Source: an uncultured Gammaproteobacteria bacterium (GTDB taxonomy: Bacteria; Patescibacteriota; Patescibacteriia; UBA9934). Taken from it: a stretch of 64,000 nucleotides of DNA. The translations under genes and the position numbers were made by a program. The notes below the pieces were generated by a model. It made no database searches, was not told the DNA's origin, and saw nothing but the letters and a program-made list of their open reading frames with translations. The stretch covers positions 515,053-579,052 of the forward strand of contig CAYVLY010000001.1 of assembly GCA_964452565.1 (NCBI GenBank), written 5' to 3'. Shown piece by piece: positions 6,955 through 25,818 of this stretch (position 1 is the first letter of the stretch; every line of letters begins with the position of its first letter).

Positions 6955-8208
6955 GTGAACGAAATGCCCCTTTCCCCCACCACCCTAGCCATCATGGCCA
7001 TGGCTCAGAACCCCGACCTGGCGGTCCTCAGGCTCATCATCCACAGCACCGGCGACTGCCTGCATGTGGACATGCCCGACTTCGGCATCAACAACTGCAC
7101 CGCCATCCCCGACGGAAGCCCCACTAGCTACCGCTGTCAGCTCTGCTGGGACATCAGGACGGGACACCTCGGTACCGACCTGACGGCCGGCACCTACCAG
7201 GTGTCCATGGGCGAGATGAACGGAGTGCAGCTGACCGACGTCGATTTCCGTGACGAACGCGAGCCCCTGGACGACGACGAGCTGACTGCGATCCGCAGCG
7301 CCTTCGCCAAGGCCTTCGGCCCGGTCCGCCGCGAGCTCGTGGAGCAGCTCGGGCTGTGGAACGCGACCCTCGAGGAGCACACGCCCCGCCACCTATGTGA
7401 GCCCATGATGCGCTACCTCGAGTTGCGCATCCAGACCAGCGGCGACAACGTGAGCCACCTGGTCCGCGAGCTCAAGGATGGCACCCTCTGGACCATCGTC
7501 GGCCTCTCCAGCGAGAAGGGCGAACACTGCAAGAGCCAGGCACGACTCCGCGGGAGCGACGAACAGCCCCATCTGCTGGACATTCTCAGGGACCCGAGCT
7601 TGCTCTTCCGCGAGCTCGACCGCTCCATGAGCGACAGATCGCGCCACACCTGGGACATCCCGCGAATCGACTTCGAGTCGCGGATACCAGGCTTCGGTGA
7701 CCTGCTCGAGCGCAACTGCATGCCGCAAATCTTCGAATTCAGCGGCACCTTCGGCAGCGCCTTCGCGAACGCCATGGCCGAGGTCTACCAGCAGTGGGTG
7801 AACCAGCAGATGCCAGGCATGCTGGCCGAGATGCTCCGCGACCGCCGCGAGCAGATCCAGACGGCCGAAAGTGATCTCAAGGCCCACATGACCCCGCCCG
7901 CGCCGGAGCCCGAGGTGGAGGAGCCCGAGATCCAGCCCCCGACCGACGGGCCGCCGTATGACTGCACCGAGCCGCCCGAGAACGACCCCGAGCCCCTGGA
8001 CCCCAGCTTCGACGAGTCGAGCGGCCACAATCCCGAGGACGAAGAGCAGATCGAGCCGCCCACCCCCGTGTCCGAGGATGAACTGCCGGAGGAGCCGGTC
8101 GTGGAGCCCGAGCCCGAGGAGCCGGTAGCCGAGCCGCCCGTGCCCGCCAATGACGAGGCGGACGCCGAGGAGCCCGAGCCCGAGATGGAGGAAGAAGAGG
8201 AGGAGTAG
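6955..8208 (+). CDS. GC-rich hypothetical protein with a long acidic Pro/Glu-rich C-terminal tail
   Basis: 417-aa ORF; the start is GTG 6955 or ATG 6964. The C-terminal 100 aa or so are PEPE/EEEE low complexity. A hairpin terminator follows at about 8250-8313. Confidence 0.4.
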   Translation: MNEMPLSPTTLAIMAMAQNPDLAVLRLIIHSTGDCLHVDMPDFGINNCTAIPDGSPTSYRCQLCWDIRTGHLGTDLTAGTYQVSMGEMNGVQLTDVDFRDEREPLDDDELTAIRSAFAKAFGPVRRELVEQLGLWNATLEEHTPRHLCEPMMRYLELRIQTSGDNVSHLVRELKDGTLWTIVGLSSEKGEHCKSQARLRGSDEQPHLLDILRDPSLLFRELDRSMSDRSRHTWDIPRIDFESRIPGFGDLLERNCMPQIFEFSGTFGSAFANAMAEVYQQWVNQQMPGMLAEMLRDRREQIQTAESDLKAHMTPPAPEPEVEEPEIQPPTDGPPYDCTEPPENDPEPLDPSFDESSGHNPEDEEQIEPPTPVSEDELPEEPVVEPEPEEPVAEPPVPANDEADAEEPEPEMEEEEEE

Positions 8209-9619: not shown

Positions 9620-9694
9620 GGCCCCATCGTCTAGTGGTTAGGACATCAGGTTTTCATCCTGGAAACGGGGGTTCGATTCCCCCTGGGGTCACCA
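9620..9694 (+). tRNA. tRNA-Glu (anticodon TTC)
   Basis: Cloverleaf: acceptor GGCCCCA/TGGGGTC, anticodon loop TTTTCAT, T-loop TTCGATT, encoded CCA. The 3' end forms attL of the integrated element. Confidence 0.85.
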
Positions 9695-11201
9695 AAGAGG
9701 ACTCATCCATGTGATGTGTCTTTTTTGTTTGTAAGATTGGCGACAAAGCAGGTGTTTCAAATCCTGAATAGGTGTACACGGGTTTTTCTGGGAAAATCAA
9801 ACTCTGCAACTGCTGTTTTTGCGTGAAGTCGGCGTCAACCCATGTCTTTGGGAGTGTTCCAACGAATCCAAAAACGTAATCAACCGCCTCGTCGATATTG
9901 AATGTTTCCAGCCGCACTTTTGCGAGCTTGGTGTGCTGGTCTGCAATGCGATCTTTTACCTCGGCAAACTCCTCCTTGAAATCATCATCCTCGATCAGTT
10001 CTTTTTTCTTCATTCCAATGAGTGCTTTCTTTTCTTCCTCTATACGATCGAGCTCAACGGTCAGACGTTTACGTTCCTGATTGATTGTTTCGTACTGGTC
10101 GTCCCATACGTCCAAAATAACAGCCTTGAACGCCTTGAGAAACTTTTGTTTGGGAGTGATTTGTTCAAGGTAGTTGAAAAACTCTTGCTCGAGAGTATCT
10201 TTTGGAATTGATTTTACTTTTGTTGGGCACTCTTTGAAGTAACAGCGGTAGTACGGATACTTGTCGCCAGACTTGTTCGTTGAGAACGAAGCGGTCATTG
10301 GACGACCACAAAATCCACAAATCACTTGATGGCGCAGCGGAAACGCATCGTTGCCACGCTTTTTGGCGATCGCATCCTCCTTGCTTGAACCTCTGAGAAG
10401 CGTTTGACACATATTGAATGTTTCCATGCTGACAAGCGGTTCATGCAGTCCTTTGTACTCTTTCCCCTTTGAAACCATGCGCCCTGTGTAAAATACGTTT
10501 CTAACGATCTTTGAAATAAGTTGCGGGGAAATCTTGTTTCCTTGCTCAGTACGCAATCCACGATCATTGACGGCAACTCGCACCTCCTCCAGCGTGTAGA
10601 TGCCTTTTGCAAACTCACCAAAGATCCAGCCCATATGCTCGGCTTTTTCACTGTCAGCTGTGACGATCTTTTCTCCTGCCTTGGTTTTGATGTTTCTGTA
10701 ACCGATGGGAGCTTTCCATTGCCAATATCCTTTTTCGAGTTTAGTCAGCATGCAATCACGGGTGCGCTCTCCACGAATCTGGTTATCAAATTGAGCATTG
10801 GCCGCCATTACGTTACCGATGAACTGACCCGCTGGCGTTTCATCAATGGCTTCTGTTACCGATATGAGCCTGATATTGAGTTTGCTCAGGAGTACCAAGA
10901 TCGTACTATAATCGTTCACGTTTCGTGTCAGACGGTCGACTTTGTAGACAATAATGAAGTCGATGGTTTTGTAGTTCTTCTTGCAGTATTCAAGCATAGC
11001 TTGAAGTCCATCTCGATTTGCCGTCTTAGCCGATACGCCATCATCATGAAACACCTTATCGACGTTACCTTGGATTTCTTTCGCCTTCCTGTGGCACGCA
11101 TTATCCTGCTGCTCCAAGCTGATACCCAAAGCAGCCTGTTCCTCTGTCGAAACACGGTAATAGATGAGGCCATTGAGTTGTAGATCTTGAGTTTCGTTCA
11201 T
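9654..11201 (-). CDS. Large serine recombinase (copy 1; C-terminus altered by integration)
   Basis: 515 aa. It has an N-terminal resolvase-type catalytic domain (YYRVSTEEQ), a recombinase domain and a Cys zinc ribbon (CGFCGRPM...YYRCYFKECP). Its 3' end crosses the att core (LVT) and terminates inside the tRNA sequence. Confidence 0.8.
   Translation of the reverse strand: MNETQDLQLNGLIYYRVSTEEQAALGISLEQQDNACHRKAKEIQGNVDKVFHDDGVSAKTANRDGLQAMLEYCKKNYKTIDFIIVYKVDRLTRNVNDYSTILVLLSKLNIRLISVTEAIDETPAGQFIGNVMAANAQFDNQIRGERTRDCMLTKLEKGYWQWKAPIGYRNIKTKAGEKIVTADSEKAEHMGWIFGEFAKGIYTLEEVRVAVNDRGLRTEQGNKISPQLISKIVRNVFYTGRMVSKGKEYKGLHEPLVSMETFNMCQTLLRGSSKEDAIAKKRGNDAFPLRHQVICGFCGRPMTASFSTNKSGDKYPYYRCYFKECPTKVKSIPKDTLEQEFFNYLEQITPKQKFLKAFKAVILDVWDDQYETINQERKRLTVELDRIEEEKKALIGMKKKELIEDDDFKEEFAEVKDRIADQHTKLAKVRLETFNIDEAVDYVFGFVGTLPKTWVDADFTQKQQLQSLIFPEKPVYTYSGFETPALSPILQTKKTHHMDESSLVTPGGIEPPFPG
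9687..9696 (+). other. att core copy 1 (attL: tRNA-Glu 3' end / element left end)
   Basis: GGTCACCAAA. The left flank is tRNA and the right flank is the element. Confidence 0.7.
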
Positions 11202-11515
11202 ATACCAAAAGGAGTGACTCTCCGTTTGAGCTCAACCACCAAACGATGGAAGAAACGGCAGTCACCCCTTTTCATATCACAACGATTGCATTGTGTTGTG
11301 TACGCTTGGAACGTTGAGCTCATACGCATTATGTCATGTTTACAGTTGATTTTCAACGGGTGTTTTTACTCCCATTCGTTCTTTTTTCCATTTCTCAAAG
11401 GCGAGGTTTGCAAATTGATATTGAGCATCTCGAAGCTGACGAATCTCATCATCGCTCATACCTTTTGCGTCTTCGCCAAGCAAACGCTTGTACTTCGAGA
11501 GCGCAATCATAAATC

Positions 11516-12682
11516 TTACGCATCATTTCCTGATGCGACCTTACGTAGCATTGCTTGTAGCTCATCCTCGCTGATGTTGTATCGCACCTCCCCAGACCCC
11601 CTCTGTACAGCCTCAATCTCACGCATCAACTCGATCTGTCGACTTTCGTCGATATGCCCGTAGCCGTAGGAGCCGAATGTAGTTGCTACATTTTCGTGAC
11701 CAAGGTTCTGGCTTATGGCTTTTTTCTGCTCCTCGGTCAGCGGCTTTTTCATGAACTCCTTGACCAAAAGATGACGCAAGGAGTGAGGATGGTAGTACGG
11801 CTCACCTGCTGCCTTGAAGCGTTTTTCAAAAATCTTTCGAGCAGGGCTTGCGCTCGACCAGTAGACAGGCTCAACTTCCCCCGTGCTGTAATAACTGATG
11901 TTTTCTTTTCCGTTTTCCACCTTGGTGGCAGGAAACAATGGGTCATTCTCCTTGAATCCACGTTCATCTTTGAGATATTCAAACCATGACAAGAAGTATG
12001 TTTGTGCTTCTTTGTATTCAAGTGGGAATAAAGCCGTTGCAATCCGCTTTGAGAACTTGGTTTTGACACCAAGGTTTGGGTCTTGGTCAACCACCATGTC
12101 AACGGGGTCAAACGAGCCCAGAGGCAAGCTCACGATTGCTGAAATGCGTGCCCCTGTCAGCAGGGTAAAGCTCAAGAGAGCCTTGTCACGCATGTCGATT
12201 TCGTTTTTTGGTTCAATCGCTTCAATGACCTTTTTTACCTGTTCCATTGTGGGAATCTTGCGTCGTTTGCTTTGAAGCGCTTGACGAGACTCCTTTTTGC
12301 CAAGTGATAAGTACCCAATATCTGTTTCTTGGATGGCCTGCCGATACCCCTCCTGCCTTGAGAGCCAGTCGAAGAAACCACGTAACTTGCGTAGAGTGTG
12401 GTACTGGTAGCTGATACTTACATTTCCACCTCGCTTGCTTTGGCGAGTGGCGAGCCACGTCTTGAACTCAACAGCACGTTTCTTGTTGAACAGATGAAAA
12501 TCCGCTTCATCCGTAAAGTCCTGCCATTGTAGAATGGCTCCTTCATACGTCGTGATGGAGCTCTGCGAAAAGCCCTTGGACTGCTTGAGGTAGTCGAAAT
12601 ACTTTCGCTTCATCAGCTCGTTTTCATAACGCACTTCTTCCTTCGTTTTTGTGGGTTTTGTGTTGTTTGTAGATTGGGACAT
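11516..12682 (-). CDS. Tyrosine recombinase/integrase family protein (copy 1)
   Basis: 388 aa with phage-integrase-like motifs (TGARISA, HPHSLRHLL, LGHENVATTFGSYGY). Confidence 0.7.
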   Translation of the reverse strand: MSQSTNNTKPTKTKEEVRYENELMKRKYFDYLKQSKGFSQSSITTYEGAILQWQDFTDEADFHLFNKKRAVEFKTWLATRQSKRGGNVSISYQYHTLRKLRGFFDWLSRQEGYRQAIQETDIGYLSLGKKESRQALQSKRRKIPTMEQVKKVIEAIEPKNEIDMRDKALLSFTLLTGARISAIVSLPLGSFDPVDMVVDQDPNLGVKTKFSKRIATALFPLEYKEAQTYFLSWFEYLKDERGFKENDPLFPATKVENGKENISYYSTGEVEPVYWSSASPARKIFEKRFKAAGEPYYHPHSLRHLLVKEFMKKPLTEEQKKAISQNLGHENVATTFGSYGYGHIDESRQIELMREIEAVQRGSGEVRYNISEDELQAMLRKVASGNDA

Positions 12683-12687
12683 ATAGC

Positions 12688-13164
12688 TTATGTGTGAGAG
12701 AATCCGTTAGTCCTTTCGGGAGAGGTTTTGAGTAGGCGAGATATTTTGCTGCCGCACGCCTCACACAGACCCGTTCTGCGATACTGTTCGAGGTTGTTTT
12801 TCCCTATCCGCTTGCCCGTTTTTTCTATTCGTTCGGTACCTTCTTTTGGCCTGACACCTTGGCCGCAGGAAAAGCAGAGGAGTTCATCTGGCTTGAGCTT
12901 CTGCTTCCTGTCGTTTCGTCGAGCTTTGAGAAAGTCGTAAAGCACCTGTCCATCAAAGAGCAGAGGCTTCTTGTTGGACATCATGGGTGCAAGCCCTTGC
13001 TTCATCCATCGCTGTACAGTTTTTCGACCAATACCCAACTCGGCGACAATCTCATTGATGTCGTAGCTATGGCGTTTTTTGATCTTGTTGAGCTGGTACC
13101 GCTTCATGACTTTGAAAGTTCTGGAGAGGCTTTCCCATCTCCGTACCTTTATGCAGCCGTTCAA
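12688..13164 (-). CDS. HTH plus zinc-ribbon DNA-binding protein (copy 1)
   Basis: 158 aa with an HTH (INEIVAELGIGRKTVQRWMKQGL) and a CxxC...CxxC motif (CFSCGQG...CEACGSK). Confidence 0.5.
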   Translation of the reverse strand: MNGCIKVRRWESLSRTFKVMKRYQLNKIKKRHSYDINEIVAELGIGRKTVQRWMKQGLAPMMSNKKPLLFDGQVLYDFLKARRNDRKQKLKPDELLCFSCGQGVRPKEGTERIEKTGKRIGKNNLEQYRRTGLCEACGSKISRLLKTSPERTNGFSHT

Positions 13165-13264
13165 GTGGAGTCGCTGTCAAATCTTTGGGGGTGTGAACAA
13201 AACAAACAAAAAATCCCCATGTTTTACGGGGTTTTTGTGTTTGGGTTATCGACGCTTTACCTTT

Positions 13265-13296
13265 GTTCAAGTATCGACTTGAACGACCACTTGAAC
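13265..13296. promoter_or_regulatory. Operator-like palindrome GTTCAAGT-n4-ACTTGAAC plus a third half-site (copy 1)
   Basis: Perfect 8-bp inverted repeat with an additional ACTTGAAC 4 bp downstream. It lies in the 140-bp gap upstream of the HTH/integrase operon. Confidence 0.4.
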
Positions 13297-13303
13297 GAGT
13301 GTT

Positions 13304-14278
13304 CTATGTACAGCAATCGAGACGGGGGTTGAGTCGATAGCGACTACGACCCTTCTTATCAAAAACCGTCTTTGTGCCGTACTCCAATGCTACGTCGTTT
13401 ATCTGTTTTTTGTATGTTGAAATCGTGCGCTTGTTACCGCTTGCAAACTTATCTGCCAAAACACTCAACTCGACCGATGGGTCATCCTTGGTTCGTGCGT
13501 TGAAAAGATACTCAATCATGTAAACGGTCGGCTGATACAGCGATAGTCTCCCTGCAAAGCGTCCTCGCCCAACCTGCTTGAATAGCAGTTCTTTGTCCTT
13601 TCTCGCCAGAACGATGTCTTTGTCCAGCACAATGGAATCTTCGCCATCAATGGCGTAATCCTGCTGGAAATATGTTGCCTCTGCGACAGCATCAATCTCT
13701 ATACCATTTTCATCAATGTCTGCGATAAGTTCCAGTACGGGAACGGCATGGATATGAAGCGAAGCTGCCTTGTTGTTTGGATCGGCAAGAAATAGCAGGG
13801 TTGGACTACTGCGTGCGATGATGCTTGCCAGATATTCTTCACGCAAGTCATTGAGGTTGGCCACAAAAAAGATGGCTCGTGCGGCACCTGTTATTTCCAT
13901 GGCACCCACATTCCAAAACAAACCACTTTGCTTGAGGTGCGCCTCGGTGAGCTCAACGCCCTCTGCGTCAAGAAACAAGGCAAGAAACCGCCGAACATTC
14001 AAACTGTATGCGTGGCGATCTTCTGGCTTGAGGTACTGTCGATCCGTATCTTTCGAGCAGGCTACAAACAGGCGTTCCTCATCTTGTTGTACTGGAAGCA
14101 GGTGCCCGTCATAGCACGACGTGCATAAAGCCTCACTCCTTCGTGCGGTAGTTTGAATCAAGCCGAGTTTGGTCAAAAACTCCGTCACCTCATTTCCAAC
14201 AAGCTCAACCAATACAGAGCGATCCACTTGTGTGCTGGCACCGAAAAGCTGTAGCCCCTGTCGTAGATCGTTTCTCAT
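13304..14278 (-). CDS. Hypothetical protein, element cargo (324 aa, copy 1)
   Basis: Its start overlaps the stop of the upstream 389-aa gene by 4 bp (ATGA). No recognisable motif. Confidence 0.55.
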   Translation of the reverse strand: MRNDLRQGLQLFGASTQVDRSVLVELVGNEVTEFLTKLGLIQTTARRSEALCTSCYDGHLLPVQQDEERLFVACSKDTDRQYLKPEDRHAYSLNVRRFLALFLDAEGVELTEAHLKQSGLFWNVGAMEITGAARAIFFVANLNDLREEYLASIIARSSPTLLFLADPNNKAASLHIHAVPVLELIADIDENGIEIDAVAEATYFQQDYAIDGEDSIVLDKDIVLARKDKELLFKQVGRGRFAGRLSLYQPTVYMIEYLFNARTKDDPSVELSVLADKFASGNKRTISTYKKQINDVALEYGTKTVFDKKGRSRYRLNPRLDCCT

Positions 14279-15444
14279 ACCTCATTCACGGTATCAATAC
14301 CCCACTTGATGAGGAGCTTCCGCACCAACATGTCTTGCTCTCGGCTTTTGAGATTATGCCCTTTGCCATGCGTTACATCGAAGGTCACAGGGCGCCTTTT
14401 TCCGTTGATTTTGAAAACGACTTTGATTTTGGCTTGAAGAATATCAAAGAAATCAAAGTTGATATTGCGATACTGGAGCATTTCTTTCATGCTTTCAACG
14501 CCACCTTTTGCATCTGATCCAATGGTCAAGTACACCTTGCTCCCATTCGGACGAAATCGCAGGCTCATTGCCTTGAGTTGAACTGATTCGACGTTTTCTT
14601 CCTCCGCTATGGTCAGCGGATCAGGGTCGAGTGATTTGAGTACGTCGAGCCTATATGAGCTTGTTTTACAGTCTTCATAACGCAGACTCCACACATCTTC
14701 AATAACGGCACGTTGCAACCCCTCAACCTTTGTTTGTCCGCCCTTGACTTTCACTTCGAGTTTATTTCCGTTCAGCCAGTATTGAATATACGCTCGTAGA
14801 ATAGGACGTCTTGGCGTATCAGGTTTGAGCTTATCATCTGTCTCAAACTTCAAGTCGTTTACAAAGCGGTCTTCTACATAGGCGACCATGCACAAGCGGT
14901 CAGGTTTTTCGATGAGCTTGATTTTGCACCGTGTCTTTCGTCGACCAAATGTGAACATGTTCTGAATAGACTGTTCAAGTGTCGTGACGCCGTTGGTCAA
15001 AGTCGCCACTTCAACATCTGGGATGACAACACTTTTCCAGCTGCAAATGTTATCGAGCGCATGTTCGTCAACCGAAGTATGGAAAATGTCCTCGTGATTG
15101 ATAAAGAACCACAAGGCTCGGGAGTGATGATTGGGGAGTTCGTCGTACACCTTCCAGTCCACGGACTTTTGCAAGCGTTCTGCGGTTTTTTGTAGATACG
15201 CTACGGAAGCCCAGCCAGACATGTCGCTGATGTCATTGAGTGCCGTGAGAACCTCACCATGCTTTTGCTCATCCTGCGTATCGACTACCACCAAAAATCG
15301 GTCAGCACGAGCTTCATCTTCTTCATCGTCGTGTATAATAAAATCCAACTCCAACTTTTTGGCGAACTCACCAAGGAGTGCGGGGTCAAACTTCATCAAT
15401 AACGATGATGGATCAAAACTTCCTGTACCAGCCATATGTTGCAA
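14275..15444 (-). CDS. Hypothetical protein, element cargo (389 aa, copy 1)
   Basis: First gene of the minus-strand cargo operon. No recognisable motif. Confidence 0.55.
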   Translation of the reverse strand: MQHMAGTGSFDPSSLLMKFDPALLGEFAKKLELDFIIHDDEEDEARADRFLVVVDTQDEQKHGEVLTALNDISDMSGWASVAYLQKTAERLQKSVDWKVYDELPNHHSRALWFFINHEDIFHTSVDEHALDNICSWKSVVIPDVEVATLTNGVTTLEQSIQNMFTFGRRKTRCKIKLIEKPDRLCMVAYVEDRFVNDLKFETDDKLKPDTPRRPILRAYIQYWLNGNKLEVKVKGGQTKVEGLQRAVIEDVWSLRYEDCKTSSYRLDVLKSLDPDPLTIAEEENVESVQLKAMSLRFRPNGSKVYLTIGSDAKGGVESMKEMLQYRNINFDFFDILQAKIKVVFKINGKRRPVTFDVTHGKGHNLKSREQDMLVRKLLIKWGIDTVNEV

Positions 15445-15475
15445 AGATTTGTCAACTTATGGTAACTTACCAAAT

Positions 15476-15676
15476 ATGCAAGATCGGTCAACTCCACGAG
15501 AGACAAAAAAGCTCCCAGAGTTGTTGACTCTCAAAGAGGCGGCTGATTTGTTGCATTGTCACCCGAATACGTTGCGTAACTGGGACAACAAGGGCATCCT
15601 TGTTGCCGTGCGTCTGGGGTCACTGGGTGATCGCAGGTACAAAAAGCAAGACATATTGAAACTGATGGAGAAATAA
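15476..15676 (+). CDS. Xis/AlpA-like HTH DNA-binding protein (putative excisionase/regulator, copy 1)
   Basis: 66 aa (MQDRSTPRETKKLPELLTLKEAADLLHCHPNTLRNWDNKGIL...) with a MerR/excisionase-type HTH. Only the C-terminal part of track ORF 15131-15676 is counted, because the rest overlaps the 389-aa gene on the opposite strand. Confidence 0.6.
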   Translation: MQDRSTPRETKKLPELLTLKEAADLLHCHPNTLRNWDNKGILVAVRLGSLGDRRYKKQDILKLMEK

Positions 15677-15686
15677 AAGATGAGGT

Positions 15687-16460
15687 ATGCAGGTCGAACA
15701 AAGTAAGAATCTTGATCAGCAATTTTGTGAACATGGAAACTTCCTATTTTCATGTCCAGAATGTAAAGAAAGAGGTAGGGATATAATTTTGAGAATAGCT
15801 GACAGGAGATCGGTGCCTGATACTGAACAGGTTGAAAAAGTCAGGAATCACATTGAGAAGGTGGTACTGGGCGCTCTTTCAATGTTTGTTTCAAGGTTCG
15901 AGACTTATTGCAGAAAAGGAAACGAACTCGAGATTGTCATAGTTGATGCGACCGATCAAGATTTTGGTTCTGGAGAAGTGAAAGGTACTACTATTGACAT
16001 CCCGTTGTTAGAAGAGGAAAGGATGAGCTTCATTTTGCAAAGAATGGTTGAGAAATCTGATGACATTACGAAAAAACAACTCGAAAACATTGGTATTGCT
16101 ATCACTTGTTCGACGATATTACACGAAGCAATACATAGTTTTTTGGAGTCAAAGCCACACTCGAGTCTTCATGAAAAGATAGAAGCAATGAGTAGTATTC
16201 CTGATCCAGAAGGGATATTTTCCACACTATGCGATGAAGCCATTGCATATTCCATGCAATCCATTTTTTCAGAAACTATAGAGCCCTTTGGAAATACTGC
16301 TCCAAGAGTTGACCAAGATAAGGAAGCTAGTCTGGTCGCTGTAAGAAAAAAACTAGGTATGGCCATCGAAAAAGATATGCGAAAGGTGTTATATGGAAGG
16401 CTGGACACAGAATCATTCTTTGATATTCTTATACAAAAAGCAAAAACACTAACTCAATAA
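15687..16460 (+). CDS. HExxH-motif protein (putative metallopeptidase, ImmA/IrrE-like?) (copy 1)
   Basis: 257 aa with an N-terminal CxxC...CPEC and an internal ILHEAIH (HExxH). Family assignment is uncertain. Confidence 0.4.
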   Translation: MQVEQSKNLDQQFCEHGNFLFSCPECKERGRDIILRIADRRSVPDTEQVEKVRNHIEKVVLGALSMFVSRFETYCRKGNELEIVIVDATDQDFGSGEVKGTTIDIPLLEEERMSFILQRMVEKSDDITKKQLENIGIAITCSTILHEAIHSFLESKPHSSLHEKIEAMSSIPDPEGIFSTLCDEAIAYSMQSIFSETIEPFGNTAPRVDQDKEASLVAVRKKLGMAIEKDMRKVLYGRLDTESFFDILIQKAKTLTQ

Positions 16461-16471
16461 CAACAATATCT

Positions 16472-16960
16472 ATGTCAGAGACACGACGTGGACAAGAGCA
16501 TTCCCCCGATTCAGCAAACGAAATAGTCGAATTGCAACGAGAACAGATGAAACAAAACTTTGATGAAATTGCAGTAAAAGCCTTGTTCCAGTTGAGGAGA
16601 AGTTTGTTAGGGAAAGATTATCGAAACTTGCCCAATTTGAGAGCGCTTCCTGAACCGTTTGAACCAAACGCAGATATATCACATGATACACTCATGAAAA
16701 TATCATCTGATTTTATTACAGAAATGAGGTTGCAAATATCAGCTATCATTGCGGAGGCAACGAGAAGATTATCTTTGTATGATCAAAAGAAACAAGAGTA
16801 TCCAATTGATGCAAACATGGCACTTGAGGAGGTCTTGATTGAAAAAGCTTTTGATTTCTTGCGAGACCAAAAAAGAATAATCAGCAACAACCGCGGTACA
16901 CTTGGTGGATGGATGAAGACAATAGTAGAAAGAGAGAAAAATATAGTTGAGCATGACTAG
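16472..16960 (+). CDS. Hypothetical protein (162 aa, copy 1)
   Basis: ORF at the right end of the element. No motifs. Confidence 0.45.
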   Translation: MSETRRGQEHSPDSANEIVELQREQMKQNFDEIAVKALFQLRRSLLGKDYRNLPNLRALPEPFEPNADISHDTLMKISSDFITEMRLQISAIIAEATRRLSLYDQKKQEYPIDANMALEEVLIEKAFDFLRDQKRIISNNRGTLGGWMKTIVEREKNIVEHD

Positions 16961-18579
16961 TCGAGAGAAAAGGGTTGCATTTTTTGAGATCCAAAAATAT
17001 GCGGCAATGTCTCCGACCATTGCTTGATTTGCTGGATCAGGGTGTTCCAATGCTCAATACAGTAGGTCACCAAAGAGGACTCATCCATGTGATGTGTCTT
17101 TTTTGTTTGTAAGATTGGCGACAAAGCAGGTGTTTCAAATCCTGAATAGGTGTACACGGGTTTTTCTGGGAAAATCAAACTCTGCAACTGCTGTTTTTGC
17201 GTGAAGTCGGCGTCAACCCATGTCTTTGGGAGTGTTCCAACGAATCCAAAAACGTAATCAACCGCCTCGTCGATATTGAATGTTTCCAGCCGCACTTTTG
17301 CGAGCTTGGTGTGCTGGTCTGCAATGCGATCTTTTACCTCGGCAAACTCCTCCTTGAAATCATCATCCTCGATCAGTTCTTTTTTCTTCATTCCAATGAG
17401 TGCTTTCTTTTCTTCCTCTATACGATCGAGCTCAACGGTCAGACGTTTACGTTCCTGATTGATTGTTTCGTACTGGTCGTCCCATACGTCCAAAATAACA
17501 GCCTTGAACGCCTTGAGAAACTTTTGTTTGGGAGTGATTTGTTCAAGGTAGTTGAAAAACTCTTGCTCGAGAGTATCTTTTGGAATTGATTTTACTTTTG
17601 TTGGGCACTCTTTGAAGTAACAGCGGTAGTACGGATACTTGTCGCCAGACTTGTTCGTTGAGAACGAAGCGGTCATTGGACGACCACAAAATCCACAAAT
17701 CACTTGATGGCGCAGCGGAAACGCATCGTTGCCACGCTTTTTGGCGATCGCATCCTCCTTGCTTGAACCTCTGAGAAGCGTTTGACACATATTGAATGTT
17801 TCCATGCTGACAAGCGGTTCATGCAGTCCTTTGTACTCTTTCCCCTTTGAAACCATGCGCCCTGTGTAAAATACGTTTCTAACGATCTTTGAAATAAGTT
17901 GCGGGGAAATCTTGTTTCCTTGCTCAGTACGCAATCCACGATCATTGACGGCAACTCGCACCTCCTCCAGCGTGTAGATGCCTTTTGCAAACTCACCAAA
18001 GATCCAGCCCATATGCTCGGCTTTTTCACTGTCAGCTGTGACGATCTTTTCTCCTGCCTTGGTTTTGATGTTTCTGTAACCGATGGGAGCTTTCCATTGC
18101 CAATATCCTTTTTCGAGTTTAGTCAGCATGCAATCACGGGTGCGCTCTCCACGAATCTGGTTATCAAATTGAGCATTGGCCGCCATTACGTTACCGATGA
18201 ACTGACCCGCTGGCGTTTCATCAATGGCTTCTGTTACCGATATGAGCCTGATATTGAGTTTGCTCAGGAGTACCAAGATCGTACTATAATCGTTCACGTT
18301 TCGTGTCAGACGGTCGACTTTGTAGACAATAATGAAGTCGATGGTTTTGTAGTTCTTCTTGCAGTATTCAAGCATAGCTTGAAGTCCATCTCGATTTGCC
18401 GTCTTAGCCGATACGCCATCATCATGAAACACCTTATCGACGTTACCTTGGATTTCTTTCGCCTTCCTGTGGCACGCATTATCCTGCTGCTCCAAGCTGA
18501 TACCCAAAGCAGCCTGTTCCTCTGTCGAAACACGGTAATAGATGAGGCCATTGAGTTGTAGATCTTGAGTTTCGTTCAT
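16957..18579 (-). CDS. Large serine recombinase (copy 2; full-length attP-type form, 540 aa)
   Basis: Identical to copy 1 down to the att core. It then continues 37 codons into the right end of the preceding element copy (…LVTYCIEHWNTLIQQIKQWSETLPHIFGSQKMQPFSLD). Confidence 0.8.
   Translation of the reverse strand: MNETQDLQLNGLIYYRVSTEEQAALGISLEQQDNACHRKAKEIQGNVDKVFHDDGVSAKTANRDGLQAMLEYCKKNYKTIDFIIVYKVDRLTRNVNDYSTILVLLSKLNIRLISVTEAIDETPAGQFIGNVMAANAQFDNQIRGERTRDCMLTKLEKGYWQWKAPIGYRNIKTKAGEKIVTADSEKAEHMGWIFGEFAKGIYTLEEVRVAVNDRGLRTEQGNKISPQLISKIVRNVFYTGRMVSKGKEYKGLHEPLVSMETFNMCQTLLRGSSKEDAIAKKRGNDAFPLRHQVICGFCGRPMTASFSTNKSGDKYPYYRCYFKECPTKVKSIPKDTLEQEFFNYLEQITPKQKFLKAFKAVILDVWDDQYETINQERKRLTVELDRIEEEKKALIGMKKKELIEDDDFKEEFAEVKDRIADQHTKLAKVRLETFNIDEAVDYVFGFVGTLPKTWVDADFTQKQQLQSLIFPEKPVYTYSGFETPALSPILQTKKTHHMDESSLVTYCIEHWNTLIQQIKQWSETLPHIFGSQKMQPFSLD
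17065..17074 (+). other. att core copy 2 (element-element junction, attP-like)
   Basis: GGTCACCAAA flanked by the element right end (CAATACAGTAGG) and the element left end (GAGGACTCATCC). Confidence 0.7.
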
Positions 18580-18893
18580 ATACCAAAAGGAGTGACTCTC
18601 CGTTTGAGCTCAACCACCAAACGATGGAAGAAACGGCAGTCACCCCTTTTCATATCACAACGATTGCATTGTGTTGTGTACGCTTGGAACGTTGAGCTCA
18701 TACGCATTATGTCATGTTTACAGTTGATTTTCAACGGGTGTTTTTACTCCCATTCGTTCTTTTTTCCATTTCTCAAAGGCGAGGTTTGCAAATTGATATT
18801 GAGCATCTCGAAGCTGACGAATCTCATCATCGCTCATACCTTTTGCGTCTTCGCCAAGCAAACGCTTGTACTTCGAGAGCGCAATCATAAATC

Positions 18894-20060
18894 TTACGCA
18901 TCATTTCCTGATGCGACCTTACGTAGCATTGCTTGTAGCTCATCCTCGCTGATGTTGTATCGCACCTCCCCAGACCCCCTCTGTACAGCCTCAATCTCAC
19001 GCATCAACTCGATCTGTCGACTTTCGTCGATATGCCCGTAGCCGTAGGAGCCGAATGTAGTTGCTACATTTTCGTGACCAAGGTTCTGGCTTATGGCTTT
19101 TTTCTGCTCCTCGGTCAGCGGCTTTTTCATGAACTCCTTGACCAAAAGATGACGCAAGGAGTGAGGATGGTAGTACGGCTCACCTGCTGCCTTGAAGCGT
19201 TTTTCAAAAATCTTTCGAGCAGGGCTTGCGCTCGACCAGTAGACAGGCTCAACTTCCCCCGTGCTGTAATAACTGATGTTTTCTTTTCCGTTTTCCACCT
19301 TGGTGGCAGGAAACAATGGGTCATTCTCCTTGAATCCACGTTCATCTTTGAGATATTCAAACCATGACAAGAAGTATGTTTGTGCTTCTTTGTATTCAAG
19401 TGGGAATAAAGCCGTTGCAATCCGCTTTGAGAACTTGGTTTTGACACCAAGGTTTGGGTCTTGGTCAACCACCATGTCAACGGGGTCAAACGAGCCCAGA
19501 GGCAAGCTCACGATTGCTGAAATGCGTGCCCCTGTCAGCAGGGTAAAGCTCAAGAGAGCCTTGTCACGCATGTCGATTTCGTTTTTTGGTTCAATCGCTT
19601 CAATGACCTTTTTTACCTGTTCCATTGTGGGAATCTTGCGTCGTTTGCTTTGAAGCGCTTGACGAGACTCCTTTTTGCCAAGTGATAAGTACCCAATATC
19701 TGTTTCTTGGATGGCCTGCCGATACCCCTCCTGCCTTGAGAGCCAGTCGAAGAAACCACGTAACTTGCGTAGAGTGTGGTACTGGTAGCTGATACTTACA
19801 TTTCCACCTCGCTTGCTTTGGCGAGTGGCGAGCCACGTCTTGAACTCAACAGCACGTTTCTTGTTGAACAGATGAAAATCCGCTTCATCCGTAAAGTCCT
19901 GCCATTGTAGAATGGCTCCTTCATACGTCGTGATGGAGCTCTGCGAAAAGCCCTTGGACTGCTTGAGGTAGTCGAAATACTTTCGCTTCATCAGCTCGTT
20001 TTCATAACGCACTTCTTCCTTCGTTTTTGTGGGTTTTGTGTTGTTTGTAGATTGGGACAT
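18894..20060 (-). CDS. Tyrosine recombinase/integrase family protein (copy 2)
   Basis: Identical duplicate of 11516-12682. Confidence 0.7.
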   Translation of the reverse strand: MSQSTNNTKPTKTKEEVRYENELMKRKYFDYLKQSKGFSQSSITTYEGAILQWQDFTDEADFHLFNKKRAVEFKTWLATRQSKRGGNVSISYQYHTLRKLRGFFDWLSRQEGYRQAIQETDIGYLSLGKKESRQALQSKRRKIPTMEQVKKVIEAIEPKNEIDMRDKALLSFTLLTGARISAIVSLPLGSFDPVDMVVDQDPNLGVKTKFSKRIATALFPLEYKEAQTYFLSWFEYLKDERGFKENDPLFPATKVENGKENISYYSTGEVEPVYWSSASPARKIFEKRFKAAGEPYYHPHSLRHLLVKEFMKKPLTEEQKKAISQNLGHENVATTFGSYGYGHIDESRQIELMREIEAVQRGSGEVRYNISEDELQAMLRKVASGNDA

Positions 20061-20065
20061 ATAGC

Positions 20066-20542
20066 TTATGTGTGAGAGAATCCGTTAGTCCTTTCGGGAG
20101 AGGTTTTGAGTAGGCGAGATATTTTGCTGCCGCACGCCTCACACAGACCCGTTCTGCGATACTGTTCGAGGTTGTTTTTCCCTATCCGCTTGCCCGTTTT
20201 TTCTATTCGTTCGGTACCTTCTTTTGGCCTGACACCTTGGCCGCAGGAAAAGCAGAGGAGTTCATCTGGCTTGAGCTTCTGCTTCCTGTCGTTTCGTCGA
20301 GCTTTGAGAAAGTCGTAAAGCACCTGTCCATCAAAGAGCAGAGGCTTCTTGTTGGACATCATGGGTGCAAGCCCTTGCTTCATCCATCGCTGTACAGTTT
20401 TTCGACCAATACCCAACTCGGCGACAATCTCATTGATGTCGTAGCTATGGCGTTTTTTGATCTTGTTGAGCTGGTACCGCTTCATGACTTTGAAAGTTCT
20501 GGAGAGGCTTTCCCATCTCCGTACCTTTATGCAGCCGTTCAA
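20066..20542 (-). CDS. HTH plus zinc-ribbon DNA-binding protein (copy 2)
   Basis: Identical duplicate of 12688-13164. Confidence 0.5.
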   Translation of the reverse strand: MNGCIKVRRWESLSRTFKVMKRYQLNKIKKRHSYDINEIVAELGIGRKTVQRWMKQGLAPMMSNKKPLLFDGQVLYDFLKARRNDRKQKLKPDELLCFSCGQGVRPKEGTERIEKTGKRIGKNNLEQYRRTGLCEACGSKISRLLKTSPERTNGFSHT

Positions 20543-20681
20543 GTGGAGTCGCTGTCAAATCTTTGGGGGTGTGAACAAAACAAACAAAAAATCCCCATGT
20601 TTTACGGGGTTTTTGTGTTTGGGTTATCGACGCTTTACCTTTGTTCAAGTATCGACTTGAACGACCACTTGAACGAGTGTT

Positions 20682-21656
20682 CTATGTACAGCAATCGAGA
20701 CGGGGGTTGAGTCGATAGCGACTACGACCCTTCTTATCAAAAACCGTCTTTGTGCCGTACTCCAATGCTACGTCGTTTATCTGTTTTTTGTATGTTGAAA
20801 TCGTGCGCTTGTTACCGCTTGCAAACTTATCTGCCAAAACACTCAACTCGACCGATGGGTCATCCTTGGTTCGTGCGTTGAAAAGATACTCAATCATGTA
20901 AACGGTCGGCTGATACAGCGATAGTCTCCCTGCAAAGCGTCCTCGCCCAACCTGCTTGAATAGCAGTTCTTTGTCCTTTCTCGCCAGAACGATGTCTTTG
21001 TCCAGCACAATGGAATCTTCGCCATCAATGGCGTAATCCTGCTGGAAATATGTTGCCTCTGCGACAGCATCAATCTCTATACCATTTTCATCAATGTCTG
21101 CGATAAGTTCCAGTACGGGAACGGCATGGATATGAAGCGAAGCTGCCTTGTTGTTTGGATCGGCAAGAAATAGCAGGGTTGGACTACTGCGTGCGATGAT
21201 GCTTGCCAGATATTCTTCACGCAAGTCATTGAGGTTGGCCACAAAAAAGATGGCTCGTGCGGCACCTGTTATTTCCATGGCACCCACATTCCAAAACAAA
21301 CCACTTTGCTTGAGGTGCGCCTCGGTGAGCTCAACGCCCTCTGCGTCAAGAAACAAGGCAAGAAACCGCCGAACATTCAAACTGTATGCGTGGCGATCTT
21401 CTGGCTTGAGGTACTGTCGATCCGTATCTTTCGAGCAGGCTACAAACAGGCGTTCCTCATCTTGTTGTACTGGAAGCAGGTGCCCGTCATAGCACGACGT
21501 GCATAAAGCCTCACTCCTTCGTGCGGTAGTTTGAATCAAGCCGAGTTTGGTCAAAAACTCCGTCACCTCATTTCCAACAAGCTCAACCAATACAGAGCGA
21601 TCCACTTGTGTGCTGGCACCGAAAAGCTGTAGCCCCTGTCGTAGATCGTTTCTCAT
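20682..21656 (-). CDS. Hypothetical cargo protein (324 aa, copy 2)
   Basis: Identical duplicate of 13304-14278. Confidence 0.55.
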   Translation of the reverse strand: MRNDLRQGLQLFGASTQVDRSVLVELVGNEVTEFLTKLGLIQTTARRSEALCTSCYDGHLLPVQQDEERLFVACSKDTDRQYLKPEDRHAYSLNVRRFLALFLDAEGVELTEAHLKQSGLFWNVGAMEITGAARAIFFVANLNDLREEYLASIIARSSPTLLFLADPNNKAASLHIHAVPVLELIADIDENGIEIDAVAEATYFQQDYAIDGEDSIVLDKDIVLARKDKELLFKQVGRGRFAGRLSLYQPTVYMIEYLFNARTKDDPSVELSVLADKFASGNKRTISTYKKQINDVALEYGTKTVFDKKGRSRYRLNPRLDCCT

Positions 21657-22822
21657 ACCTCATTCACGGTATCAATACCCCACTTGATGAGGAGCTTCCG
21701 CACCAACATGTCTTGCTCTCGGCTTTTGAGATTATGCCCTTTGCCATGCGTTACATCGAAGGTCACAGGGCGCCTTTTTCCGTTGATTTTGAAAACGACT
21801 TTGATTTTGGCTTGAAGAATATCAAAGAAATCAAAGTTGATATTGCGATACTGGAGCATTTCTTTCATGCTTTCAACGCCACCTTTTGCATCTGATCCAA
21901 TGGTCAAGTACACCTTGCTCCCATTCGGACGAAATCGCAGGCTCATTGCCTTGAGTTGAACTGATTCGACGTTTTCTTCCTCCGCTATGGTCAGCGGATC
22001 AGGGTCGAGTGATTTGAGTACGTCGAGCCTATATGAGCTTGTTTTACAGTCTTCATAACGCAGACTCCACACATCTTCAATAACGGCACGTTGCAACCCC
22101 TCAACCTTTGTTTGTCCGCCCTTGACTTTCACTTCGAGTTTATTTCCGTTCAGCCAGTATTGAATATACGCTCGTAGAATAGGACGTCTTGGCGTATCAG
22201 GTTTGAGCTTATCATCTGTCTCAAACTTCAAGTCGTTTACAAAGCGGTCTTCTACATAGGCGACCATGCACAAGCGGTCAGGTTTTTCGATGAGCTTGAT
22301 TTTGCACCGTGTCTTTCGTCGACCAAATGTGAACATGTTCTGAATAGACTGTTCAAGTGTCGTGACGCCGTTGGTCAAAGTCGCCACTTCAACATCTGGG
22401 ATGACAACACTTTTCCAGCTGCAAATGTTATCGAGCGCATGTTCGTCAACCGAAGTATGGAAAATGTCCTCGTGATTGATAAAGAACCACAAGGCTCGGG
22501 AGTGATGATTGGGGAGTTCGTCGTACACCTTCCAGTCCACGGACTTTTGCAAGCGTTCTGCGGTTTTTTGTAGATACGCTACGGAAGCCCAGCCAGACAT
22601 GTCGCTGATGTCATTGAGTGCCGTGAGAACCTCACCATGCTTTTGCTCATCCTGCGTATCGACTACCACCAAAAATCGGTCAGCACGAGCTTCATCTTCT
22701 TCATCGTCGTGTATAATAAAATCCAACTCCAACTTTTTGGCGAACTCACCAAGGAGTGCGGGGTCAAACTTCATCAATAACGATGATGGATCAAAACTTC
22801 CTGTACCAGCCATATGTTGCAA
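21653..22822 (-). CDS. Hypothetical cargo protein (389 aa, copy 2)
   Basis: Identical duplicate of 14275-15444. Confidence 0.55.
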   Translation of the reverse strand: MQHMAGTGSFDPSSLLMKFDPALLGEFAKKLELDFIIHDDEEDEARADRFLVVVDTQDEQKHGEVLTALNDISDMSGWASVAYLQKTAERLQKSVDWKVYDELPNHHSRALWFFINHEDIFHTSVDEHALDNICSWKSVVIPDVEVATLTNGVTTLEQSIQNMFTFGRRKTRCKIKLIEKPDRLCMVAYVEDRFVNDLKFETDDKLKPDTPRRPILRAYIQYWLNGNKLEVKVKGGQTKVEGLQRAVIEDVWSLRYEDCKTSSYRLDVLKSLDPDPLTIAEEENVESVQLKAMSLRFRPNGSKVYLTIGSDAKGGVESMKEMLQYRNINFDFFDILQAKIKVVFKINGKRRPVTFDVTHGKGHNLKSREQDMLVRKLLIKWGIDTVNEV

Positions 22823-22853
22823 AGATTTGTCAACTTATGGTAACTTACCAAAT

Positions 22854-23054
22854 ATGCAAGATCGGTCAACTCCACGAGAGACAAAAAAGCTCCCAGAGTT
22901 GTTGACTCTCAAAGAGGCGGCTGATTTGTTGCATTGTCACCCGAATACGTTGCGTAACTGGGACAACAAGGGCATCCTTGTTGCCGTGCGTCTGGGGTCA
23001 CTGGGTGATCGCAGGTACAAAAAGCAAGACATATTGAAACTGATGGAGAAATAA
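22854..23054 (+). CDS. Xis/AlpA-like HTH protein (copy 2)
   Basis: Identical duplicate of 15476-15676. Confidence 0.6.
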   Translation: MQDRSTPRETKKLPELLTLKEAADLLHCHPNTLRNWDNKGILVAVRLGSLGDRRYKKQDILKLMEK

Positions 23055-23064
23055 AAGATGAGGT

Positions 23065-23838
23065 ATGCAGGTCGAACAAAGTAAGAATCTTGATCAGCAA
23101 TTTTGTGAACATGGAAACTTCCTATTTTCATGTCCAGAATGTAAAGAAAGAGGTAGGGATATAATTTTGAGAATAGCTGACAGGAGATCGGTGCCTGATA
23201 CTGAACAGGTTGAAAAAGTCAGGAATCACATTGAGAAGGTGGTACTGGGCGCTCTTTCAATGTTTGTTTCAAGGTTCGAGACTTATTGCAGAAAAGGAAA
23301 CGAACTCGAGATTGTCATAGTTGATGCGACCGATCAAGATTTTGGTTCTGGAGAAGTGAAAGGTACTACTATTGACATCCCGTTGTTAGAAGAGGAAAGG
23401 ATGAGCTTCATTTTGCAAAGAATGGTTGAGAAATCTGATGACATTACGAAAAAACAACTCGAAAACATTGGTATTGCTATCACTTGTTCGACGATATTAC
23501 ACGAAGCAATACATAGTTTTTTGGAGTCAAAGCCACACTCGAGTCTTCATGAAAAGATAGAAGCAATGAGTAGTATTCCTGATCCAGAAGGGATATTTTC
23601 CACACTATGCGATGAAGCCATTGCATATTCCATGCAATCCATTTTTTCAGAAACTATAGAGCCCTTTGGAAATACTGCTCCAAGAGTTGACCAAGATAAG
23701 GAAGCTAGTCTGGTCGCTGTAAGAAAAAAACTAGGTATGGCCATCGAAAAAGATATGCGAAAGGTGTTATATGGAAGGCTGGACACAGAATCATTCTTTG
23801 ATATTCTTATACAAAAAGCAAAAACACTAACTCAATAA
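23065..23838 (+). CDS. HExxH-motif protein (copy 2)
   Basis: Identical duplicate of 15687-16460. Confidence 0.4.
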   Translation: MQVEQSKNLDQQFCEHGNFLFSCPECKERGRDIILRIADRRSVPDTEQVEKVRNHIEKVVLGALSMFVSRFETYCRKGNELEIVIVDATDQDFGSGEVKGTTIDIPLLEEERMSFILQRMVEKSDDITKKQLENIGIAITCSTILHEAIHSFLESKPHSSLHEKIEAMSSIPDPEGIFSTLCDEAIAYSMQSIFSETIEPFGNTAPRVDQDKEASLVAVRKKLGMAIEKDMRKVLYGRLDTESFFDILIQKAKTLTQ

Positions 23839-23849
23839 CAACAATATCT

Positions 23850-24338
23850 ATGTCAGAGACACGACGTGGACAAGAGCATTCCCCCGATTCAGCAAACGAA
23901 ATAGTCGAATTGCAACGAGAACAGATGAAACAAAACTTTGATGAAATTGCAGTAAAAGCCTTGTTCCAGTTGAGGAGAAGTTTGTTAGGGAAAGATTATC
24001 GAAACTTGCCCAATTTGAGAGCGCTTCCTGAACCGTTTGAACCAAACGCAGATATATCACATGATACACTCATGAAAATATCATCTGATTTTATTACAGA
24101 AATGAGGTTGCAAATATCAGCTATCATTGCGGAGGCAACGAGAAGATTATCTTTGTATGATCAAAAGAAACAAGAGTATCCAATTGATGCAAACATGGCA
24201 CTTGAGGAGGTCTTGATTGAAAAAGCTTTTGATTTCTTGCGAGACCAAAAAAGAATAATCAGCAACAACCGCGGTACACTTGGTGGATGGATGAAGACAA
24301 TAGTAGAAAGAGAGAAAAATATAGTTGAGCATGACTAG
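23850..24338 (+). CDS. Hypothetical protein (162 aa, copy 2)
   Basis: Identical duplicate of 16472-16960. Confidence 0.45.
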   Translation: MSETRRGQEHSPDSANEIVELQREQMKQNFDEIAVKALFQLRRSLLGKDYRNLPNLRALPEPFEPNADISHDTLMKISSDFITEMRLQISAIIAEATRRLSLYDQKKQEYPIDANMALEEVLIEKAFDFLRDQKRIISNNRGTLGGWMKTIVEREKNIVEHD

Positions 24339-24443
24339 TCGAGAGAAAAGGGTTGCATTTTTTGAGATCCAAAAATATGCGGCAATGTCTCCGACCATTG
24401 CTTGATTTGCTGGATCAGGGTGTTCCAATGCTCAATACAGTAG

Positions 24444-24453
24444 GTCACCAAAA
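24444..24453 (+). other. att core copy 3 (attR: element right end / chromosome)
   Basis: GGTCACCAAA followed by the chromosomal hairpin AGAACACGC-tccc-GCGTGTTCTTTT. Confidence 0.7.
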
Positions 24454-25802: not shown

Positions 25803-25818
25803 CTGACCACCCACTCTC

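Follow-up and report, generated by a model that had tools for sequence, protein, structure and literature searches.

Are two coupled genes of no recognisable family part of what a mobile element carries, or part of what makes it an element? We asked this of a 64,000-nucleotide stretch of DNA (here called the window) from an uncultured Gammaproteobacteria bacterium that GTDB places in the Patescibacteriota (GenBank assembly GCA_964452565.1, contig CAYVLY010000001.1, positions 515,053 to 579,052, forward strand). In it, two adjoining minus-strand genes, referred to as A (upstream) and B (downstream), lie on a small element next to a tRNA gene. A first-pass annotation, made from the sequence alone, had taken them for the main cargo of that element. 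Comparison with related loci (L numbers below) shows that A-B instead belongs to the core, or backbone, of a family of small integrative elements whose insertion sites are the 3′ ends of tRNA genes.

A coupled and conserved gene pair

The pair and its overlap have the following coordinates in the window:

13304..14278, minus strand: gene B, copy 1; 324 amino acids (aa), ATG start
14275..15435, minus strand: gene A, copy 1; 386 aa from the ATG at 15435
14275..14278, minus strand: ATGA stop/start overlap of A and B; exact, and recurring in relatives

Both minus-strand open reading frames (ORFs) and their ATGA overlap were confirmed where the first-pass annotation had placed them. Its length of 324 aa for B stood, whereas that of 389 aa for A did not. 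The latter is the longest-ORF version of the gene (14275..15444, minus strand, TTG start at 15444), and the ATG at 15435 sits three codons inside this TTG. As all A homologues begin with MAGTGSFDP or MATGSFDP, the start of A is the ATG and the protein has 386 aa. The pair spans 2,141 bp, or 29% of the 7,378-bp element unit, close to the 30% first estimated. Read on the minus strand, the junction is ...GAG GTA TGA / ATG AGA AAC..., an overlap indicating translational coupling of A and B. Overlaps of 4 nt or 1 nt between the two genes are repeated among relatives (e.g., L001 8001-9146/9143-10129).

In 14 of the 14 lineages sampled, A is followed by a gene of 289-350 aa that usually overlaps it, and two A-B fusions were also found. 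Close homologues share 49-100% identity in A and 50-100% in B. In comparisons of A with two orthologues, synonymous sites are saturated and the ratio of nonsynonymous to synonymous substitution rates (dN/dS) is about 0.05-0.06; the proportions of nonsynonymous and synonymous differences in B are 0.25 and 0.76, respectively. Within the same elements B identity is 59% where A identity is 81%, which means that B diverges much faster. That A and B are real genes, coupled, obligately paired and under purifying selection can be regarded as settled.

Family searches did not name either protein. Pfam and NCBIfam gave no match for A or B, PADLOC (PADLOC-DB v2) gave nothing at E <= 1, and no Rep, primase, helicase or ParA/ParB domain was matched in Pfam, NCBIfam or PHROGs. 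Neither protein carries a recognisable catalytic, ATPase, membrane or known-defence signature or a transmembrane segment (the maximum 19-residue Kyte-Doolittle mean of B is 1.30). The first-pass description of a coupled two-gene unit on a tRNA-integrating element, without an assignable motif and with a function that cannot be read from its sequence, thus holds, and the homologues are conserved as a pair; these searches turned up no homology to a well-characterised family.

The pair belongs to the backbone of the element

Next to A-B, the element carries recombination genes, small DNA-binding proteins and a slot of variable content:

15476..15676, plus strand: MerR/HTH_17-type gene, 66 aa, divergent from A-B; the 181-aa ORF listed here is over-extended
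12688..13107, minus strand: HTH_17 protein with C-terminal zinc ribbon; 139 aa from its ATG, the ORF reaching a TTG at 13164
11516..12682, minus strand: tyrosine recombinase, 388 aa
9654..11201, minus strand: large serine recombinase at the tRNA junction, 515 aa
15687..16960, plus strand: cargo slot of the window element, with a 257-aa and a 162-aa ORF; copy 2 at 23065-24338

Each element unit therefore has the large serine recombinase, a 56-aa ORF, the tyrosine recombinase, the HTH_17/zinc-ribbon protein, B and A on the minus strand, and the 66-aa MerR/HTH_17 protein and the 257-aa and 162-aa ORFs on the plus strand. In relatives, the order MerR-like gene (divergent), A, B, HTH_17 gene, tyrosine recombinase, small ORF and large serine recombinase is fixed, at A identities of 86% (L008), 81% (L005-7), 49% (L001-4) and 29% (L009-11). 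Beyond the MerR-like gene, these relatives carry their variable genes, which encode either a Type III-like Mod/Res system or a Dam methylase with a PDDEXK nuclease, plus a diversity-generating retroelement (RVT_1 and bAvd) that is located next to the restriction-modification system (L001 573-1993, L005 3679-5108, L008 1796-3238, L009 4156-5446). The 257-aa and 162-aa ORFs of the window are unrelated to this cargo. Moreover, L005 adjoins the Vut_1 and AI-2E transporter genes that also border the window element, and therefore occupies the same chromosomal site with different cargo. The trio of MerR-like gene, A and B is repeated in further lineages.

As the gene order is fixed down to 29% A identity while the genes beyond the MerR-like gene change, A-B is part of a conserved core and not cargo. 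The first-pass view of the pair as main cargo is thus not borne out, and neither is its claim that the pair is the only sizeable content besides recombination genes; the 257-aa and 162-aa ORFs fill the cargo slot of the window element. A-B is element housekeeping, and hence more ordinary than the novel accessory system that had been proposed, yet still widespread and uncharacterised. It marks the conserved core of very small integrative elements that ferry restriction-modification systems and diversity-generating retroelements between Candidate Phyla Radiation (CPR) bacteria and other lineages, hosts whose mobile-element biology is almost unknown.

Two observations concern the cargo of relatives. 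A 255-aa ORF in L005 (2345-3112) is a possible variable target of the diversity-generating retroelement. The 257-aa ORF of L008 was considered as a counterpart of the 257-aa ORF of the window and rejected, since the sequences are unrelated and the equal length is coincidental.

A perfect tandem duplication at a tRNA gene

The first-pass annotation did not mention that the pair is present twice in the window. Positions 9687-17074 equal 17065-24452 at 100% identity, so that the element stands twice, head to tail, with a unit of 7,378 bp:

9687..17064, no strand: element unit 1, 7,378 bp; core at 9687-9696
17065..24452, no strand: element unit 2, 100% identical to unit 1; cores at 17065-17074 and 24443-24452
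20682..21656, minus strand: gene B, copy 2, identical to copy 1
21653..22813, minus strand: gene A, copy 2, identical to copy 1
22854..23054, plus strand: MerR/HTH_17-type gene, copy 2; copy of the control motif at 22832-22847
16957-18579: large serine recombinase at the unit-unit junction, 540 aa, other C-terminus

A 10-bp core, GGTCACCAAA, occurs three times (starting at 9687, 17065 and 24443). The first of these (9687-9696) lies inside the 3′ end of a tRNA-Glu(ttc) gene at 9620-9694, the sole match of the Rfam scan. The two copies could reflect a true tandem integration or an assembly of integrated and circular or concatemeric forms; both are possible. Among the 29 loci fetched, no contig showed a terminal overlap and there was no sign of circular forms.

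The gene for the serine recombinase crosses the attachment site. The copy at the tRNA junction terminates within tRNA-Glu (C-terminus ...VTPGGIEPPFPG), and the copy at the unit-unit (attP-like) junction has a different tail. An overlap of this gene with a tRNA gene, for Glu, Ser or Asn, was also found in relatives (L002 12218-13759 with tRNA 13719-13793, L009 12491-14296 with tRNA 14084-14171, and L013 12661-14364 with tRNA 14337-14409). As the recombinase reads across the attachment site and its tail differs between junctions, integration changes its C-terminus. This arrangement suggests that the serine recombinase, and not the tyrosine recombinase, targets the 3′ end of the tRNA gene.

Neighbourhoods in distant lineages

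No gene accompanies the pair more regularly than the divergent MerR/HTH_17 gene (window, L001, L005, L008, L009, L013 and L025-29), and A-B is divergent from a 66-aa gene of this type in at least 10 lineages. Most contigs of sufficient length encode a large serine recombinase within 10 kb (L002, L004, L006, L009, L013, which has two, L018 and L022). A DNA methyltransferase gene lies within two genes of the MerR/A/B block in about 9 of the 14 lineages. The enzymes next to the pair include Type III Mod/Res (L001, L009, L012, L013, L020), a Type ISP enzyme (L018/19) and Dam-type methylases (L005, L008, L015). A-B without any methylase nearby was found in the window, in L025, where the cargo is a glycosyltransferase, and in Ralstonia and Tenderia. 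In Tenderia, the pair is followed by a multiubiquitin/JAB/E1 system. The defence-type neighbours also include Fic, and a DUF499 ATPase adjoins the multiubiquitin/JAB/E1 system.

A second backbone variant was also observed, in which A-B is followed by a DUF5659 protein and two further proteins, of about 455-465 aa (unannotated) and about 170-190 aa, which replace the HTH_17 and tyrosine recombinase genes. It is found at these positions:

L013, 10232-12643: second backbone variant
L025, 9131-9385: second backbone variant
L027, 3263-5464: second backbone variant

None of the proteins of this variant has a Pfam or PHROG function, and PHROG scans of the backbone neighbours (the ~455-aa, ~170-aa and DUF5659-adjacent proteins and the 56-aa ORF) gave no match. 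A literature search returned nothing relevant on CPR integrative elements of this type.

The A family and its predicted fold

To place A, a profile of its close homologues was compared with 1.84 billion representative proteins. This yielded 384 clusters at E <= 1e-3 (clustered at 50% identity), nearly all of 370-420 aa and matched over their full length. A function for this family would thus annotate many genes together. A matches the phrog_37634 hidden Markov model with E = 2.6e-9 (residues 100-385 on profile positions 94-406 of 416), as do 85 of the 94 sampled family members, the best with E = 1.1e-46. This PHROGs v4 entry is unnamed, has no function and no literature, and shows that the A family has already been seen in (pro)phage-derived data. 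A Pfam scan of the 94 relatives gave no consistent family, a PADLOC scan gave one chance-level match (E = 0.009), and a profile of the 94 sequences found chance-level matches only among PDB sequences. The family has no Pfam entry and no solved relative at the sequence level, and no literature on it was found.

Carriers of A include a CPR bacterium (Candidatus Uhrbacteria, the NCBI name for the source of family member P0002), marine Tara contigs, a Candidatus Tenderia electrophaga plasmid and a Ralstonia solanacearum megaplasmid. In tblastn searches, three family members (P0001, P0044 and P0077) had no match in 50,697 phage genomes, and P0001 and P0044 had none in plasmids, where P0086 alone of the A-family queries gave matches. 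A related-locus search with A-family alignment A1 found one genome locus and no viral contig. In Ralstonia solanacearum (L022), A is followed with a 4-nt overlap by a 324-aa B-like hypothetical protein, and these megaplasmid homologues make the question experimentally accessible.

Two labels in the records deserve mention. Several GenBank records call the Ralstonia solanacearum A homologue (L022 9055-10284; CP076122.1 1908016-1909245) a 'glycine hydroxymethyltransferase', which looks like a mis-annotation. Contig CAZDDW010000009.1 (L016/L002), which carries a 49%-identical element at tRNA-Glu with the same backbone, is labelled as an uncultured Gammaproteobacteria bacterium. The closest named relative is Candidatus Uhrbacteria. 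Either a binning or labelling error or real cross-phylum spread is possible.

The structure models of A and B were each built from only 6-7 sequences. The AlphaFold model of A combines an N-terminal helical domain (residues ~10-130) of high confidence with two beta/alpha modules of moderate to low confidence. Foldseek matched this model to CENP-N/Chl4 over most of its length (probability 1.0, E = 3e-4 to 7e-3). From this we infer that A may have an RdgC/CENP-N/Chl4-like fold. The N-terminal domain is acidic (isoelectric point, pI, 4.5) and the RdgC-like parts are basic (pI 9.1-9.4). RdgC, Iml3/Chl4 (CENP-L/N) and lambda RexA represent one fold class of dimeric clamps that bind double-stranded DNA (dsDNA) without sequence specificity (PMC11077077; bioRxiv 10.1101/2022.01.06.475204), and lambda RexA biases the lysis-lysogeny switch (PMC11077077).

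The resemblance to each member of this class has limits. RdgC is a recombination-associated, nucleoid-associated protein of E. coli (PDB 2OWL; Pfam PF04381). Its Pfam family matched neither A nor the 94 relatives, and hhalign of the A-family profile against E. coli RdgC gave a probability of 0.1%. Unlike RdgC, A is a 386-aa protein with an extra acidic N-terminal helical domain, lies on mobile elements and always has B as a partner. CENP-N/Chl4, which with CENP-L/Iml3 forms a DNA clamp of the eukaryotic inner kinetochore, shares 8-12% identity with A, with template modelling scores (TM-scores) of 0.25-0.43 on a medium-confidence model of A. A role for B as a paralogous, CENP-L-like partner is not supported, as B has no detectable relationship to A. 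Against lambda RexA, the A-family profile reached an hhalign probability of 0.7%. Actinophage RexA-like proteins (Rex-like pairs, Sbash gp30/31 and others) are 337-372 aa long, near the size of A. As in lambda RexA/RexB, A-B is a two-gene operon in an immunity-like region, opposite a small Cro/Xis-like gene; this is an analogy of arrangement only. RexB is a small polytopic membrane protein, whereas B has 324 aa and no transmembrane segment. The fold assignments of A and B are best read as fold-level leads from imperfect models, and not as family memberships.

A PD-(D/E)xK nuclease reading of A (AYPED ... LEVK) was rejected. P0017, P0023 and P0024 have N, D or G in place of E227, the motif strands lie about 20 residues and one strand apart in the model, and no nuclease family of Pfam was matched.

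The partner protein B

A profile of close B sequences recovers the B of L001, L005, L008, L009, L013, L018/19, L025 and L027/28 at E <= 1e-9, and that of L020 at E = 3e-3. The B-like genes of L015, L017, L021 and L022 share position, size and a WxLG motif at residue ~125. A CxxC...C zinc-ribbon pattern is present in those of L015 and L017 and absent from those of L021 and L022. The two A-B fusions (698 and 687 aa) carry B motifs in their C-terminal halves, and one of them matches the B profile by hhalign with a probability of 76% and E = 2e-5. Invariant in the family are C52, C55, H59 and C74, followed by W122 and G125 (WxLG) and a terminal YRLxNP-like motif.

B is predicted to consist of an N-terminal winged helix, a CxxC..H..C zinc ribbon, an acidic middle (pI 4.1) and a basic C-terminal region (pI 9.7) with an OmpR-type winged helix that ends in YRLNP. 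The model thus points to a zinc ribbon combined with an OmpR-type winged helix. Pfam Trans_reg_C, the family of OmpR/PhoB, was reached by one of 12 B-family members at E = 0.023, below the cut-off, with no match for the B of the window. B differs from OmpR/PhoB in that it has no receiver domain; hhalign of the B profile against PhoB was negative, and the mean predicted local distance difference test (pLDDT) of the model is 54. A profile of 12 B sequences found chance-level matches only among PDB sequences, a profile search for further B-family members gave no new ones, and hhalign detected no relationship between A and B. B is without annotation everywhere, and the combination of a clamp with a zinc-ribbon/winged-helix protein has not been described before.

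The control region of the pair

Two features frame the operon:

15436..15475, no strand: divergent control region, 40 bp between the start of A and that of the MerR-like gene
13215..13231, minus strand: hairpin of terminator type, CCCCGTAAAACATGGGG and then a T-run, 73 nt past the B stop codon; from a consensus scan only

With this hairpin behind B, the two genes probably form a transcription unit of their own. The control region contains a 16-bp motif, TAAGTTACCATAAGTT, at 15454-15469, which is TAAnTT repeated at 10-bp spacing. Its degenerate pattern has two matches in the window, one per element copy at this site, where shuffling predicts 0.03. L001-4, L008-11 and L016 have the motif at the corresponding site, which extends its conservation to elements with 29% identity in A. 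This makes it a candidate operator or core promoter element.

A proposed role and its alternatives

What might such a pair do for its element? We tentatively favour a reading, to which we give somewhat less than an even chance, in which A-B is a DNA-binding complex that acts on the element, with B targeting A to the control region and so setting the integrated or excised state. In this proposal, A and B would form a non-enzymatic complex on the element's own DNA. B would be the fast-evolving, sequence-specific subunit, with its zinc ribbon and OmpR-type winged helix, and its faster divergence within the same elements is as expected for a specificity subunit. A would be the slowly evolving protein of the RdgC/CENP-N/RexA class, whose basic domains would clamp or coat dsDNA without sequence preference. 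B would recruit A to a site such as the TAAnTT-N4-TAAnTT motif in the 40-bp region that separates the A-B operon from the MerR/excisionase-like gene, by analogy with cI-rexA opposite cro in lambda. Thereby the complex would set a divergent switch between an integrated, quiescent state and one of excision and cargo-operon expression, and it may also shield element DNA from RecA-type recombination. In this proposal, the folds and the binding to DNA are inferred, as are the complex of A with B, the operator and a role in regulation.

Several observations weigh against this regulatory complex. Both models are weak (mean pLDDT 67.6 for A and 54.2 for B), and hhalign found no sequence-level link of A to RdgC or RexA, or of B to PhoB. 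The motif could consist of promoter elements, or be an operator for the MerR-like or HTH_17 protein and not for B. In three lineages (L012, L018/19 and L020), restriction genes immediately precede A-B in the same orientation and no MerR-like gene separates them. The Tenderia plasmid has no serine recombinase within 9 kb of A-B. Finally, a primase gene follows A-B in two lineages, which fits a role in replication better.

Such a role is the first alternative. A-B could be the replication-initiation or segregation module of the excised circle, with B on an origin- or centromere-like site and A loaded as a clamp, so that the pair recruits a host or element primase or helicase, or tethers the circle for inheritance. 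Besides the two primase genes, which directly follow A-B (in L015, a 1,020-aa DnaG-type protein with Zn_ribbon_DnaG, DNAG_N and Toprim domains; in L020, a Prim-Pol), this idea is consistent with two proteins that, from their models, both look DNA-binding. Winged-helix domains are typical building blocks of plasmid initiators. The fold class to which A may belong includes the centromere DNA clamp CENP-LN, and a replicating or concatemeric form might account for the perfect tandem duplication. However, the 7.4-kb unit contains no iterons, tandem repeats or obvious AT-rich origin, only short two-copy repeats of a chance type. Furthermore, A and B have no Rep, ParA/Walker or helicase signature, the window element and most relatives lack a primase or helicase, and none of the 29 loci is a circular contig. 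We consider a replication or segregation module rather unlikely.

The neighbours of the pair raise a second alternative, namely that A-B is a Rex-like phage-exclusion pair or another defence pair in an immunity-like region, with A as a RexA analogue that senses DNA or a DNA complex and B as a novel partner. The neighbours are very often defence genes (Type III, Type ISP, Dam with PDDEXK, Fic, multiubiquitin/JAB/E1), the position resembles, by analogy, that of lambda cI-rexA-rexB opposite cro, the predicted fold of A is of the RdgC/RexA class, and phrog_37634 places the A family among catalogued phage and prophage proteins. Yet the synteny with the recombinases is kept to 29% identity while true defence cargo turns over. 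No effector was identified: B lacks the transmembrane segments of RexB, and nuclease, NADase and pore domains are absent from both proteins. PADLOC has no match for the pair and a single chance-level match among the 94 A-family members, A has no sequence similarity to RexA, and the tblastn searches with three A-family members found nothing in the 50,697 phage genomes. Exclusion or defence seems about as unlikely for A-B as replication or segregation.

A bolder form of these ideas would make A-B a two-subunit clamp of the RdgC/CENP-LN/RexA class that had gone unrecognised in prokaryotes, directed to its site by a zinc-ribbon/winged-helix subunit. It would act either as a 'centromere/immunity hub' of the element, for its stable inheritance or the control of its state without an ATPase, or in a membrane-independent Rex-type exclusion. 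We rate this as speculative and quite unlikely. If the RdgC/CENP-N/RexA-type fold of A is true, these elements would be a second mobile-element lineage besides RexA to use this clamp, here with a sequence-specific partner, which would help to explain the roles of such clamps in genetic switches.

The frequent methyltransferase neighbours also allow a reading in which A-B assists or controls the restriction-modification system beside it, for example by delaying restriction after transfer or alleviating it. Besides the methyltransferase genes within two genes of MerR/A/B, it can draw on the arrangement in L012, L018/19 and L020, where Mod-Res (or the Type ISP enzyme), A and B lie on one strand. 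However, the window element has no methyltransferase or restriction gene, and nonetheless its A-B copies are intact, identical and under purifying selection. The L025, Tenderia and Ralstonia loci likewise lack an adjacent methyltransferase. This makes the reading very unlikely.

A toxin/immunity pair, the last suggestion of the first-pass annotation taken up here, is unlikely as well, since both proteins are large, neither has a toxin-like or membrane domain and both look DNA-binding; a Type II toxin-antitoxin pair (~70-150 aa) is not supported, given the 386 aa of A, the 324 aa of B and the absence of any match to a toxin or antitoxin family.

Other features of the element and the window

Neither ORF of the cargo slot has a match in Pfam, PHROGs, NCBIfam or PADLOC. 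In the 257-aa ORF, an HExxH motif (ILHEAIHSF) is accompanied by Cys pairs near the N-terminus (CEHGNFLFSCPEC). A 14-nt inverted repeat (11223-11236/11313-11326) shortly before the start of the serine recombinase gene is 93% complementary, with 76 nt between its arms. TTGAAA-17-CATAAT with a TG, which ranks first among the sigma-70-like promoter matches of the element, is also located just upstream of this gene (11356-11328, minus strand). Together, the repeat and the promoter match form a possible control site of the serine recombinase gene.

The GC content of the window swings from 38% to 66%. A 417-aa ORF at 6955-8208 lies in a segment of 66% GC and has a very acidic, repetitive C-terminus rich in Pro and Glu (EEPEPE...). 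Just outside the element, a GC-rich 43-nt direct repeat (25816-25858 and 26489-26531; 91% identical, 673 bp apart) surrounds a 161-aa ORF.

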